From positions 1-28,912 of the IMG/VR virus record IMGVR_UViG_3300025167_000046: 28,912 nucleotides of DNA, one strand, 5' to 3'. The notes under the pieces were generated by a model. The model did no database searches and was not told where the DNA came from. It saw nothing but the letters and a program-made list of their open reading frames with translations. Position 1 is the stretch's first letter. Each line of letters opens with the position of its first letter. Position numbers and translations under genes: made by a program. Shown here one piece after another: positions 1 through 28,698 of this stretch. The stretch comes from a virus (lineage: Duplodnaviria; Caudoviricetes).

Positions 1-204
1 AAGATTAATTGATCTTTCTAGTTTATCAAATCTATCATCATTGGTAGCAGGAGAAGGACTTGCACCTTCTATCTTTTGGGTATGAGCCAAATGAGTATCT
101 ACATTCTCTTTCCTGCTATTCTTATTTTTTGAGCCTGGTGGTCTACCACGCTTCTTTACTACAATTTCTTTTTCAGTAAAATCTAATTCTAATTGGTTGG
201 ACAT
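1..204 (-). CDS. Hypothetical protein with AT-hook motif (3'-truncated by window edge); contains tRNA-Met in frame
   Basis: Manual translation from ATG 204 (AGAGGA RBS upstream): MSNQLELDFTEKEIVVKKRGRPPGSKNKNSRKENVDTHLAHTQKIEGASPSPATNDDRFDKLERSINL..., open to position 1; KKRGRPPGSKNK is a canonical AT-hook. Not in the supplied ORF track. Confidence 0.75.
   Translation of the reverse strand, partial: MSNQLELDFTEKEIVVKKRGRPPGSKNKNSRKENVDTHLAHTQKIEGASPSPATNDDRFDKLERSINL
42..117 (-). tRNA. tRNA-Met (CAT), initiator-like features
   Basis: Acceptor AGCAGGA/TCCTGCT + A + CCA; D stem GAG/CTC (A11-U24); anticodon arm TTTGG-CTCATAC-CCAAA; T arm GAAGG-TGCAAGT-CCTTC; 76 nt. Non-canonical A8 and G55. 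Confidence 0.88.
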
Positions 205-336
205 TTCATCCTCTTTTTTGAGTAATAACCCTCATCCTGCTCCCAGGATCATCCTCGGTCATCGGATATTAGCTAGTTCCTTTTAGACATTGTATTGTCA
301 AGAACCATTTTACCGAATTATACCTACTCCACCCTT

Positions 337-381
337 TTAGCCTATTCTACTACTTAGAACCGTAGATGGTTCATAGGCTAA
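337..381 (-). ncRNA. Candidate structured RNA element (outer stem + hairpin + loop pseudoknot) just after the MCP stop
   Basis: TTAGCCTAT-GAACC-ATCTAC-GGTTC-TAAGTA-GTAGA-ATAGGCTAA. Confidence 0.5.
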
Positions 382-383
382 TT

Positions 384-3089: not shown

Positions 3090-3164
3090 TGGTCAGGGAG
3101 ATTGGATTCGCACCAATGTCCTCTCGGTTCCAAGCCGAGTAGTCTACTACTGACTTACCCCCTG
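3090..3164 (-). tRNA. tRNA-Pro (TGG)
   Basis: Acceptor CAGGGGG/CTCCCTG + A + CCA; anticodon arm CTCGG-CTTGGAA-CCGAG; T arm ATTGG-TGCGAAT-CCAAT. Confidence 0.9.
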
Positions 3165-17611: not shown

Positions 17612-17645
17612 AAACTTGACTTTCAGTGTTTTGATATGGTATAAT
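17612..17645 (+). promoter_or_regulatory. Sigma70-type promoter for replication genes (18-bp spacer class)
   Basis: AAAC-TTGACT-TTCAGTGTTTTGATATGG-TATAAT. Confidence 0.75.
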
Positions 17646-17877: not shown

Positions 17878-18834
17878 ATGACTTTTAAACCTTATCCAAA
17901 AGTTTATAACATAGGCAGTAAAGGATTTGAGAGAATCTTTGAATTGCCTGTAGAGATATCAGAAAAGATTGATGGGTCTAACGTATCTATCCATCGGACG
18001 GAAGAAGGAATAAAATTAGCGTCCAGATCAAAATGGTTATCACACCAATCTCCAGGTGATGTAGGAATGTTTAGCAAATTTGTTAATTGGGTTAGATGTA
18101 GTGAATTCGATCTATCCTGCCTTCCTTTAGGTTCTGCACTGTGGGGAGAATTTAGCAATAACCATAATGTTTTAAAGTATGAAAAGACTTGTCCATTTAT
18201 TCTGTTTGATGTAAGTTACACAGATGAATTTGGGAATAGAAAATTTTTACCAAGAAACGAATGGAATAGTTTTTTTAGGAACTGGTTTGGATCGGATGAT
18301 TTTATGTATGAACATTTAAATCCGATAAAAGTATTGTTTACACCACAAGAAAATACTTCGCTCAGTAGATTGCCCATGCCAATTAAAGAATGGATGGATA
18401 GTATTTTAAAAACTCCTTCGATGTTAGGTGGTAAAATTGAGGGGATAGCAATAAAAAATTATACAGAATTAACTTCGCATGGTGAATTGTTATTTTGTAA
18501 ATATGTAGCACCGGAATTTAAAGAACAGCACAGAGTAAGCACGAAGGGATTACCTGGAGAACCTATAGAAAAACAGATAGCAGACAGTTATTACAACGAT
18601 GCCAGATTGGTAAAGGCAATAAGTAGATTGAAAGAGGATGGCAGATGGACAGGCGAATTAAAAGACATAGGCCCATTGATAGGGATTGTTAATCAAGATA
18701 TTTATACTGAGTGTGAACAAGATATTAAACAAGACTTGTTCGATCATTTTTGGAAACAAATAACAAGGATGGTAACAAGTAGAATACCACAAAATTATAA
18801 AGATCATTTGGAGAAAAACAATGCTAAGACTTAG
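17878..18834 (+). CDS. RNA ligase, Rnl2-like family
   Basis: YPKV, motif I EKIDGSN, ASRS, WGEF, FILFDV, IEGIAIK, CKYVAPEFKE. Confidence 0.85.
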   Translation: MTFKPYPKVYNIGSKGFERIFELPVEISEKIDGSNVSIHRTEEGIKLASRSKWLSHQSPGDVGMFSKFVNWVRCSEFDLSCLPLGSALWGEFSNNHNVLKYEKTCPFILFDVSYTDEFGNRKFLPRNEWNSFFRNWFGSDDFMYEHLNPIKVLFTPQENTSLSRLPMPIKEWMDSILKTPSMLGGKIEGIAIKNYTELTSHGELLFCKYVAPEFKEQHRVSTKGLPGEPIEKQIADSYYNDARLVKAISRLKEDGRWTGELKDIGPLIGIVNQDIYTECEQDIKQDLFDHFWKQITRMVTSRIPQNYKDHLEKNNAKT

Positions 18835-19024
18835 ATATTTCAAGGCAGCGAAACAGCGACATGATTTTCAATTTGTTGGGCATCAAGTAAAATTGCCAGC
18901 GAACCATGAAATTCAGGCGCAATTATGGTATAAATTTTTCTGGCATTGTGTACCAGGGGTAGTTTATGACACTCTAAGAGAGTTATTTGTGAGGAATGAT
19001 GACCCCATCACGCCAGGAGAGTGA
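18821..19024 (+). CDS. Hypothetical protein
   Basis: GGAG RBS, overlaps both neighbours. Confidence 0.6.
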   Translation: MLRLRYFKAAKQRHDFQFVGHQVKLPANHEIQAQLWYKFFWHCVPGVVYDTLRELFVRNDDPITPGE

Positions 19025-20550
19025 TGATGTTGGAAAACTATATTGAGCAATACAAAAAACTCGGATGGAAATTAATACCACTCAAAGAGAAGATACCATT
19101 TTTAAAAGACTGGCAAAATAGGGTATGGGACACCCCGATTACTTATAACGGGAATATAGGAATTCAAACAGGGGAGGTATCTGGAATAATTGTAGTGGAT
19201 GTTGACCACGAAATTTTTGATGATAGTGTGGTGGAAAAAACAATATTCGAGAGTATAACTCCATTCACAAGAACAGGCAAAGGATGGCACTATTATTTTA
19301 AATACCTAGAAGGAGTTAGAAATTCTGTAGCAAAACTAGGGCCTGGGATTGATATTCGATCAAATAATGGGTATGTAGTTGCTCCCCCATCTATTCATCC
19401 AGACACCCATAAACCTTACGAATGGATTGTACCACCTATGGAATGCCCACTAGCAGAATTTCCAAAAGAATTATATGAAAAGTTGCAGCACAAAGAGTAT
19501 GAAGATTTTCACGGCCACAATATTATAAATTTAGATATGGTAAAAGAAGGCCAAAGAAATAATTATCTTACTTCACTAGCAGGCACTATGCGAAATAGAG
19601 GGTTTGGTTTTGAAGCAATCTATAAAGCAATAGATCAAGAAAATCAAGATAAATGTAATCCACCATTGGAACAATATGAAGTGAGAACAATAGCAGAAAG
19701 TATATCAAAGTATGAACCACAAGATCGAGTGGGGGTAGCTCCAAACGTAGAGCAGTCGTCTCCAAAACGACAGGATGATGGTTCAAATCCATCCCCCCAT
19801 GCCAATATTCATAAATATTCTGAGATTAAAAAGATAGAATTTCCACCAGTGGAAGTTATCCCTACAGGCATAAAAAGTTTAGATCAATACTTCGATGGTG
19901 GATTAGGATTAAAAGAGCTAAGTTTATTCGTAGCAGAACAAGAGACAGGTAAATCAACTATTGCTTGTCAAATCGGAGCTAATGCAGTCAGGAATGGATA
20001 TAATGTATTGCATGTCTTTTATGAAGATGAATTAAAATCGGTGAAAGAAAGATATGATGGACATAACATTAATCCAGAAGAATCTTTAACAGATGTTTTT
20101 TTACTAGATGCTACATCCCATCCGGTTAGCGTAGAGACAATAGAAAAAAAGATCAAAGAAATAAAACCAGGGCTAGTGATTGTGGATTACTTTGCCAGGA
20201 TACCATCATCAAGAGGATTGAATGAAAACAGGTTTGAACTTAGAGACACGATGATGAAGTTAGGTAATCTTGCAAGGCAGAATGATTGTCATGTTATGGT
20301 TTTAGATCATGTTACTATCACCTTCAAAGATTATTCTGATAGTAAGGAACCCTGGTGTTATAAGATGCGAACACACAGAATAGCAGAGGCAAAGATGTTT
20401 AAATTAATGGTGATTAATCTTTGTATCGGGATGGTGAGGGACAAAGATGAAAAAACTGTATGGGTAACTGGGATGAAAAATAAGAGAAGGGCTAGACAAT
20501 TATTCAAACAATTTACTATTGATTGGGAAAAGGGAGTATTCAATGGATAG
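19021..20550 (+). CDS. Bifunctional primase-polymerase + PriCT + SF4-like helicase fusion
   Basis: NIGIQTG, VVDVD, RTGKGWHYYF, DIRSNNGYVVAPPSIH; EGQRNNYL (PriCT); Walker A AEQETGKST, Walker B VIVDY. Confidence 0.9.
   Translation: MMMLENYIEQYKKLGWKLIPLKEKIPFLKDWQNRVWDTPITYNGNIGIQTGEVSGIIVVDVDHEIFDDSVVEKTIFESITPFTRTGKGWHYYFKYLEGVRNSVAKLGPGIDIRSNNGYVVAPPSIHPDTHKPYEWIVPPMECPLAEFPKELYEKLQHKEYEDFHGHNIINLDMVKEGQRNNYLTSLAGTMRNRGFGFEAIYKAIDQENQDKCNPPLEQYEVRTIAESISKYEPQDRVGVAPNVEQSSPKRQDDGSNPSPHANIHKYSEIKKIEFPPVEVIPTGIKSLDQYFDGGLGLKELSLFVAEQETGKSTIACQIGANAVRNGYNVLHVFYEDELKSVKERYDGHNINPEESLTDVFLLDATSHPVSVETIEKKIKEIKPGLVIVDYFARIPSSRGLNENRFELRDTMMKLGNLARQNDCHVMVLDHVTITFKDYSDSKEPWCYKMRTHRIAEAKMFKLMVINLCIGMVRDKDEKTVWVTGMKNKRRARQLFKQFTIDWEKGVFNG
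19729..19804 (+). tRNA. tRNA-Trp (CCA), nested in the primase-helicase CDS
   Basis: Acceptor GTGGGGG/CCCCCAT + G73 + CCA; D stem GCTC/GAGC; anticodon arm GTCGT-CTCCAAA-ACGAC; T arm GATGG-TTCAAAT-CCATC; 76 nt. Confidence 0.93.
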
Positions 20551-20899: not shown

Positions 20900-21186
20900 G
20901 TAAAATAATTATAGAAATAGAAACACTAAGATCAGGCCAGCCAAGAGCATATGCTGATTCGGTGTATGAATATTTTGTTACAGTAAAAAATTATTGGAAC
21001 AGTACGACAGGAGAACAAGAAGGGACATTCACCCCGAAGGAAGAAGATATTAAGGAATTGGTACAAATGTTTGGGCATAAATTTGTAGAAAAATCTACTT
21101 GTTGGGCTGATCCTGTATTGAAAGAATTTGAAAAGATAGACTTCAGAACATATAGAGTAAGAATTATTGACCCCTTCAAGGATTAA
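20896..21186 (+). CDS. Hypothetical protein
   Basis: ATGA-coupled start, in operon. Confidence 0.65.
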   Translation: MSKIIIEIETLRSGQPRAYADSVYEYFVTVKNYWNSTTGEQEGTFTPKEEDIKELVQMFGHKFVEKSTCWADPVLKEFEKIDFRTYRVRIIDPFKD

Positions 21187-21187
21187 T

Positions 21188-22839
21188 ATGGTGATTACAC
21201 TCGATTGCGAAACCATCGGCGTAGATCATCATCACCCTGATTTTAAAGTATTGTTTAATGGGTTTTATGATCCCGAAGATAATTTTTTGTATCAAGGGCC
21301 TTGTGATGTAACCGTAACGACTGATCACCCAGTAACATTTATAGGACACAATATTAAATTTGATCTTAAATGTTTATTAAAACAAGGTTATAGTTTATCA
21401 GATAATTTTTATGACACCCAGGTAGCGGTACATATTCTCAGGGAAGATTTAGATAGTCATGGTTATAAACTGGAAAATTTGGCAAAGTTATTATATCAGT
21501 ATCCTAATTACAAGAAGATGATAGATTTTGAAAGAGAAGAATATTGGAATGACATCGGATGGTTAAAACTTTATAACAAACACGATTTAATATTCACAAA
21601 ACAGTTAAAGAATTTAACAGAGCCAGCATTAAAAAGAACTGGGAAGTGGGCACTATTTCAAATGATGATGGAGTATGTGAAGCATCTAACCACACTCGAA
21701 ATGAGAGGGATAAAAATAGATGTCGATGAATTAGATAGACAGGGAGCGATATGGACAGCCAAGAGAATAAAAACTCTCGAAGAACTGAGAAATTATTCCA
21801 CCAAGTTAGATTGGGATAGTGATACATCGAAGCCCGTTAAGGAATATTTCCATAAATATTTTAAAGTCCCATTAACAGAAAAAAAGAACATAAAATTAAA
21901 TGAACTTGTATTAAAAGATTTGGCTGAAAATCAAGAATCAAAAGAAGCAGAGTTGGTTTTAATATTGAGAGCATGTACAAAACAAATAGGAACATATAAT
22001 GAAGGGTTCAGATCGAGGCTTTACGAGGGATATTATTACCCTGATTATTCTCTTATCTCTACTCTTACTGGTAGGTTAAGTGAACATTTTATTCAGGTGA
22101 TGCCAAGAAAAGAAACGAGTGAATTTAAAAAGTGCATAGTTTCAAAATTTCCTGACGGATACTTGTTATCAAATGACTGGTCAAGGTTGGAAGCATTACT
22201 TCAAGCAGAGTTAGTCTGGATTGTAACAGGAAAGCACAAGCTGGCAGATGATCTTATGTCAGGGTATGATATTCATGACGCTACATTAAAGAAATTTAAA
22301 TTCTTACCGGATAGAACTAGGGCCAAGAATGCAAATTTTAGTACGATATTTGGTGGCAGAGGCTACACCTTAGTACAGGAGTATGGGTTCACATGGCCCC
22401 AGGCGAAGGAATTTGTACATGATTTAACTGTTATCAGATATCCAGAATTATCAGAACTATTCGGAATAATAGGGGCCAGAATTATAAATGAACATTATGT
22501 AGAGCATCCTTACACCCATAGAGGTAGGCATACTGATAATTATAATGAAGGACTGAATGCTCCAATTCAAGGGATAGGCACAGATATAACAAGATTATGA
22601 CAATCGTGTTATCGGAGAAGTTGCAAGGATATCAGAGCCATGTGTGCTTGGATTGTCATGATGATCTCACTATTGATGTACATCCAGAGGAAAAAGATGA
22701 AGTTATTCAGATAGTTAAGAAGGAGTATGGTAACTTCTCCGAACACTTTCACAGATTTTTTGGAGTAGAATTAAAGGTAAGGTACAATGCTGAACATAAG
22801 ATAGGGAGAAATTTATATGACATGGAAAAAATTACTTAA
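21188..22839 (+). CDS. Family A DNA polymerase with 3'-5' exonuclease, split by a frameshift near 22585-22600
   Basis: Exo DCET, GHNIKFD, YNKHD; TLTGRLS; motif A NDWSRLE; motif B RTRAKNANFSTIFG; NAPIQG; motif C CHDDL lies in the second ORF 22597-22839. Confidence 0.88.
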
Positions 22840-28600: not shown

Positions 28601-28673
28601 GGGGATGTGGCTCGAATGGATAGGCAGCAGTCCGTAAAATTGCGTCATGCAGGTTCAAGTCCTGTCGTCCCCA
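28601..28673 (+). tRNA. Atypical tRNA, GTA anticodon (Tyr-like), no encoded CCA
   Basis: Acceptor GGGGATG/CGTCCCC + A; anticodon arm GCAGT-CCGTAAA-ATTGC; T arm GCAGG-TTCAAGT-CCTGT; short variable loop; C33. Confidence 0.75.
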
Positions 28674-28698
28674 CTGATATTTTTAATAGGAGATAAAA

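Follow-up and report, generated by a model that had tools for sequence, protein, structure and literature searches.

The window that we analysed, a virus record taken over its whole length of 28,912 bases, carries genes for a portal protein, the major capsid protein, a DNA polymerase A, an RNA ligase and a primase-helicase, together with the features listed in Table 1. In the primase-helicase gene a Prim-Pol domain, a PriCT_1 domain and a RecA-fold ATPase with a Walker A motif all lie in one frame; its start may be ATG 19027, as in the database protein P0001 (507 aa), in which case the residue numbering used here shifts by two. Fold searches matched the ATPase module to DnaB, T4 gp41, T7 gp4 and RadA, and because such a search cannot part DnaB from RadA or KaiC, we assign the helicase activity from the context of the module. 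No relative of the primase-helicase protein was found in the genome contig collection, and no cultured phage covers 80% of it. The nearby DNA polymerase A gene (window 21167-22839) is present as two overlapping ORFs (477 and 80 aa), which may reflect a frameshift or an assembly error; it forms one ORF of approximately 550 aa in the related loci L009 and L010 and is split elsewhere in L016.

Table 1. Features of the window, with strand and supporting details.
Feature	Position	Strand	Details
Second host gene, 5' part	1..204	-	directly after the major capsid gene; runs off the window
Nested tRNA-Met(CAT), slot 2	42..117	-	76 nt, encoded CCA; same register as slot 1; Rfam 46.6 bits
Free-standing tRNA-Pro(TGG)	3090..3164	-	intergenic; only frame 3 free of stops; internal comparison
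Best sigma-70-like promoter match	17616..17645	+	11/12, extended TG; upstream of RNA ligase and primase-helicase; consensus only
RNA ligase gene (PF09414)	17878..18834	+	upstream of primase-helicase; not required for nesting
Primase-helicase ORF	19021..20550	+	Prim-Pol 11-148, PriCT_1 174-234, linker, DnaB/RecA-like ATPase (AAA_25) 280-431
Nested tRNA-Trp(CCA), slot 1	19729..19804	+	76 nt, G73, encoded CCA; ARAGORN, Rfam, fold
Conserved coding start of helicase module, NIHKYSEIKKIEFPPV	19805..19851	+	ahead of first downstream in-frame start, GTG 19849
Free-standing tRNA-Tyr(GTA)	28601..28674	+	intergenic, no encoded CCA; internal comparison

The linker between the PriCT_1 domain and the ATPase holds a tRNA gene in frame. 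An earlier note on this DNA had described it as a complete tRNA-Trp with four paired stems, G73 and CCA, and had proposed a check with a tRNA caller. ARAGORN indeed calls the gene at 19729-19804, Rfam model RF00005 matches it at 59.2 bits (E 1.3e-10), and in its minimum-energy structure, a cloverleaf, all 21 stem pairs form (one of them G-U); the 7-nt anticodon and T loops and the CCA end are likewise present. The z-score of the fold was -3.57, with 1 of 200 shuffled sequences equally stable. The D loop has C14 and C18 at positions where A14 and G18 are usual in tRNAs. The best BLAST matches were annotated phage tRNA-Trp genes (72-77%), and the G+C content was 54%, compared with 35% for the remainder of the gene. 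From the tRNA-Trp identity set as listed in Table 1 of PMC9976931, G73, CCA, G3-C70, G4-C69, G5-C68 and A9 are present, while G1-U72 and U2-A71 stand in place of the listed A1-U72 and G2-C71. The placement of the tRNA on the sense strand, in frame and between PriCT and helicase, also claimed before, is borne out by the ORF and the domain matches: its first nucleotide is the first codon position of residue 237, and the ORF stays open through the tRNA, which encodes residues 237-261 as the peptide VGVAPNVEQSSPKRQDDGSNPSPHA. In the AlphaFold2 model pLDDT falls below 50 at residues 235-259, flanked by confidently modelled domains, and the tRNA-encoded linker is thus predicted to be disordered. Misassembly, which could have undone the finding, is not indicated, as contigs from four of the eight runs (X8, X1, X4 and X9) span the tRNA unbroken and with zero differences; these contigs may come from the record's own source samples, and no conflicting joint was found among them.

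Conserved coding sequence lies on both sides of the tRNA, which argues that the fused frame is real. The 16 codons between the end of the tRNA and GTG 19849 differ from those of the related locus L015 by six silent and three replacement changes, and from those of L016 by three and one, and they include a YS motif that family members share whether or not they carry a tRNA. Translation must therefore enter upstream of the tRNA 3' end. All 14 related genes lack a stop between the modules, and the frame is fused even in L024 and L025, which have a short linker and no tRNA. A two-gene structure in which the helicase has its own start at GTG 19849, which is how one public pipeline annotates it and which is of the kind that the earlier note had named as a way for its proposal to fail, is consequently very improbable. 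This reading could draw on the 233-aa JGI/IMG proteins P0121, P0133 and P0134, the first of which begins at the valine of GTG 19849, and on the presence of this GTG in the three closest relatives; against it stand the conserved codons and YS motif ahead of the GTG, the missing stop in all 14 genes, and the ENA and Logan gene calls, both of which read through the tRNA. The pipeline's split likely arose from masking of the tRNA during gene calling, an interpretation of ours. Since one public pipeline lists the 233-aa helicase apart, genes of this kind are probably split and the arrangement missed, and genes with nested tRNAs thus expose a blind spot of annotation. The N-terminal module varies in the helicase family (L011:3133-4948; L024:122-1747; P0019, P0129): in some members it combines Prim-Pol and PriCT, in others it is a different primase-like domain, and in others again a short domain accompanied by a separate gene upstream.

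To place the nested tRNA in its family we compared the same position, here called slot 1, in 14 distinct related genes with DNA, from which duplicates and core-only matches had been removed. This set leaves out 51 of 66 loci (L028-L078; ATPase core only, at most 31% identity), as well as L004-L006 (no tRNA), L083-L084 and duplicate records, and it under-samples distant family members. An intact 76-nt tRNA occupies one place and one register in 4 of the 14 genes and comprises three isotypes: Trp in the window (59.2 bits), Gly(TCC) in L015 (60.4 bits), and Met(CAT) in L016 (51.6 bits) and L009 (44.2 bits). A further three, all of one lineage (L011, L021, L022), hold a remnant in the same frame, in which the acceptor stem, the T arm and ACCA survive (E 0.009 when searched with a model made from the tRNAs of this family), and seven (L010, L012, L019, L020, L024, L025, L026) show no trace of a tRNA. 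For two more proteins, available as amino-acid sequence only, a tRNA could encode the linker; the tRNAs of P0002, P0009 and P0141 are predictions from the peptide. When 80,406 windows of 146 proteins were tested for such codability, the 13 best windows all fell within slot 1 or the second slot described below; P0009, which is only 43% identical, scored perfectly. In the helicase tree P0009 groups with P0124 (100/98), outside the clade of the window (100/99), and the distribution of tRNAs on this tree is patchy. Where relatives carry a tRNA in the linker, the tRNA fold is kept with paired changes in the stems, the comparison that the earlier note had proposed.

Among the three closest proteins, identity was 91-96% for the helicase, 56-63% for the primase and 32-36% for the tRNA peptide. 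The tRNA peptide being the least conserved part, slot 1 marks a module boundary at which the peptide sequence appears unconstrained. Free CAT tRNAs of relatives are more similar to the Met tRNA of slot 1 (70-71%) than are the other tRNAs of that slot (53-60%), a pattern suggesting that whole tRNA genes have been exchanged. The Trp and Gly tRNAs have the acceptor stem and 5' flank in common (70%) and may be one refitted scaffold. L016 and L009 differ at a single position in 1515 nt, G53C in L009, which breaks the G53-C61 pair. The Met tRNA has C8 and two D-stem mismatches, and the Gly tRNA lacks three of the four bacterial acceptor determinants listed in Table 1 of PMC9976931. A pattern scan for the slot-1 flanks returned no records beyond three already in the set, and a scan for the acceptor stem returned four stretches, the only new tRNA among them being a free tRNA-Pro.

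Several further observations concern these linkers and their surroundings. In L011 (4118-4222) the remnant is closed by a predicted stem of approximately 22 pairs that buries the CCA, and the T arm of this remnant matches the one in the window's slot-2 tRNA-Met exactly. At L020:645-719, L021:2159-2232 and L019:6664-6734, free tRNAs with CAT anticodons immediately precede or follow the primase-helicase gene or are found further downstream; none of these loci has an intact linker tRNA. The linker of the distant relative L026 (195-280) forms a long hairpin (z -5.1 with hand-picked ends, the best of 30 windows), and the linker peptides of P0012, P0013 and P0015 are somewhat similar to its own; neither this linker nor that of L012 gave an Rfam match or a tRNA. 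Long linkers with a common SVESGAQVESP-like motif are found in a separate clade (P0123, P0125, P0126, P0127; L012:4530-4675). Phage variants with the Trp tRNA and variants with the Met tRNA co-occur in runs X4, X8, X9, X12 and X13, which makes exchange between them ecologically possible.

The same arrangement recurs in an unrelated second gene of the window, laid out as KKRGRPPGSKNK, the nested tRNA and a conserved domain; its complete form in L091 (1414-1914) encodes 166 aa. The KKRGRPPGSKNK stretch is presumably AT-hook-like. The gene product belongs to no PHROGs family, and its sole Atlas match scored 0.78. Slot 2 bears a tRNA in three of the four orthologues with DNA: the tRNA-Met of the window, with non-canonical A8 and C38, and, at the corresponding position in G003 and G004, tRNA-Thr(TGT) genes that differ in sequence. 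A distant homologue in G005 has neither the N-terminal part nor a tRNA. Conserved protein flanks the slot on both sides in the window, G003, G004, P0139 and P0141, and it is on this conservation that slot 2 rests, rather than on frame length, because the part upstream is only 29 codons long. The two Thr copies differ by five two-sided changes, with one position unpaired in either copy, and are, judged by their sequences, the best hint of selection in place. The nested tRNAs are moreover all the tRNAs found in these two genomes, two of two in G003 (98% complete) and one of one in G004 (complete). In the window, roughly 180 non-coding bases (205-383, minus strand) separate the capsid gene from the second host gene, with an inverted repeat, seen by eye, at their start; a similar gap (L100:1850-2057) follows an ORF that we take to be HNH-like.

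Stem cells are 96.8% paired across the six distinct nested tRNAs, and 16 of 21 pairs are changed on both sides, values that none of 500 shuffles reached. Because these are several tRNAs of separate origin, the covariation shows that they are real tRNAs and does not show selection after insertion. The acceptor-end identity fits the anticodon in five of the six, and both Thr and both Met copies have most of the bacterial determinants, in each case as listed in PMC9976931 (Table 1). We then set the nested tRNAs against 113 other viral tRNAs (distinct, ARAGORN-confirmed and flanked by 300 nt, taken from 240 retrieved loci). All six nested tRNAs are free of stops in frame 1, compared with 57 of the 113 and with 6 of 23 in phage CcrSC; a frame open on both sides for at least 40 codons occurred in 2 of the 113, and one of 80 codons in none. 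C14 is also found in free viral tRNAs (approximately 190 versus 4000 stretches) and hence need not mean decay. As a mark of nesting it was rejected, since 40 open codons on both sides occurred in 1 of 63 C14-type and 1 of 50 A14-type tRNAs (p = 1); frame 1 was open more often in the C14 type (40/63 versus 17/50, p = 0.002).

RNase P cuts tRNAs at their 5' ends, and 3' nucleases trim the trailer. Taking the two slots together, we lean modestly towards the view that they hold exchangeable tRNA cassettes, placed in linkers that tolerate them, and that host RNase P likely releases these from a fraction of the mRNA with some loss of protein. In intact messages the nested tRNA would be translated as a spacer indifferent to sequence; in a share of messages host RNase P and 3' nucleases would likely excise it, supplying the tRNA and leaving behind a primase message without a stop and a helicase piece without a start. 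Isotypes may have been exchanged by recombination between phage tRNA genes at the module boundary, with survival in the slot probably limited to tRNAs that are stop-free in this register, and the selected benefit would mainly be the tRNA, as with other phage tRNAs. Every cut message would forfeit a full-length primase-helicase, which would make cutting a cost or mild damper and not a purpose-built switch. As to the source of the precursor, a consensus scan found fewer sigma-70-like sites than in shuffles and no promoter-like site within 500 nt upstream of the tRNA-Trp; with no promoter close by, the tRNA would have to come from mRNA, and the promoter match ahead of the RNA ligase gene is a candidate for the start of that transcript. 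We counted in favour of cassettes the three isotypes of slot 1, the existence of slot 2, the stem pairing, the low peptide conservation, the likeness to free CAT tRNAs and the 0 of 113 above, and against them G53C, the odd core bases, the missing Gly determinants and the slot-1 genes that are traceless (7/14) or hold a remnant (3/14).

Two other accounts have to be weighed against this one. The cut itself may be what is selected, any tRNA offering RNase P a place to cut, so that the amount of full-length protein is limited or the primase and a separately started helicase are set free. Freely varying anticodons would fit this idea, as would acceptor and T stems that are 100% paired compared with 87.5% for the D stem, and the L011 lineage, whose remnant at this position and in this frame consists of just the acceptor, T arm and ACCA; the predicted pairing of its CCA inside a long stem speaks against it, as do anticodon arms and listed identity bases that are kept in the nested tRNAs and that a bare cut site does not need. 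In the window, L015 and P0002 the first codon of the tRNA is an in-frame GTG or ATG, at which cleavage would create a leaderless start; the tRNA of L016, however, begins with AGC, the three slot-2 tRNAs begin with AGC or GCC, and in G003 neither the tRNA nor the 30 codons that follow contain a start in frame. The linker is the most structured window of the gene in L011 (31 windows) and L026 (30 windows) and unremarkable in five of the eight genes tested, by which a general rule that every linker is structured was ruled out. On balance, selection for the cut appears rather unlikely to us. A wider form of it, in which interchangeable RNase P cut sites at domain boundaries yield either the fused protein or a tRNA plus separate modules, and in which the tRNA also serves as a crossover point between primase and helicase, is similarly doubtful; if true, it would amount to a general layer of phage gene control hidden from annotation.

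The nested tRNAs could also be passengers, linkers being the only tolerant landing sites, where stop-free tRNAs persist and then decay without benefit. The series from intact copies through G53C in L009 and the remnant in L011 to no trace could be read as such decay, in keeping with the non-canonical core bases, the patchy spread on the helicase tree and the fact that about half of viral tRNAs open in frame anyway. Yet stems and CCA are intact in six distinct copies, G003 and G004 both keep a slot-2 Thr tRNA while differing by compensated changes, and the closest clade shows repeated replacement and not loss, so we give this explanation a low probability as well. Still far less credible are an integration attachment site and an intron removed and re-ligated with the help of the neighbouring RNA ligase. 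Temperate phages integrate at tRNA genes, and an attP can sit inside a repressor ORF, a precedent described in PMC10865867; but neither the tyrosine integrase domain PF00589 nor the resolvase domain PF00239 occurred in any of five records (three of them at least 90% complete), and a 25-nt 3' piece of the tRNA had no exact match in the genome contig collection, from which the host may be absent. Integration is unsupported and was rejected. Splicing, suggested by the ligase gene upstream, was rejected because excision at the mature ends breaks the frame (removal of 73, 74 or 76 nt shifts it and only 75 keeps it) and because the ligase family is missing from G003 and G004, both of which have nested tRNAs.

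The preferred cassette reading retains part of what the earlier note had proposed, namely that each transcript yields either the fusion protein or a tRNA and a cut message: the fused frame and the kept fold agree with it, and cutting would break the message, but a regulatory switch is only one of three live readings. A switch setting the primase:helicase ratio was dropped as the lead, with seven of the 14 genes traceless and the same arrangement present in an unrelated second gene. Should the nested copies prove to be processed, the same bases inside a replication gene would specify both a protein linker and a tRNA, phages would be able to house and swap tRNAs with no space between genes given up to them, and natural variants (intact, damaged, remnant and empty) would allow a direct test of how ribosome and RNase P compete for one message.

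Phage-encoded tRNAs are known to include ones that counter tRNA-cleaving defences (PMC12409363). The nested copies resemble ordinary phage tRNAs in their full cloverleaf and encoded CCA, and differ from them in that ordinary ones are intergenic. With an attP inside a phage gene and tRNA-dependent lysogeny (PMC10865867) they share a tRNA-related sequence tied to a coding region, although neither an integrase nor a host-identical core was found here in the records and contigs searched. A full-text literature search, with subscription papers mostly outside it, returned no account of tRNAs nested in phage replication genes, so that the lack of precedent claimed earlier stands for such genes in the literature searched; it does not extend to the model as a whole, as the same either-or outcome, with a non-stop mRNA, has been proposed for selC/selB by Mukai 2021 (PMC8124441). 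There, selC (tRNA-Sec) is nested in the selB ORF of Alphaproteobacteria, called the first bacterial case, and the text cites a tRNA-Lys inside cox1 of the Armadillidium vulgare mitochondrion. The latter is likewise a tRNA wholly inside a coding region in direct orientation, but belongs to a compact animal mitochondrial genome, is 60 nt long, and comes with no mention of isotype exchange in that text. Closer is selC/selB itself, also described by bioinformatics only, in which a whole sense-strand tRNA is translated in frame and remnants persist in some lineages (PMC8124441). According to the same source, selC forms a C-terminal extension, is always a tRNA-Sec, in most cases 93 or 96 nt long, and has its host protein as partner. 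The phage tRNAs, in contrast, lie between domains, are 76 nt long, change isotype among close relatives, occupy two unrelated genes and have no evident link to the host protein. What is new compared with selC/selB is thus the position between domains, the exchange of isotypes and the occurrence in two genes.
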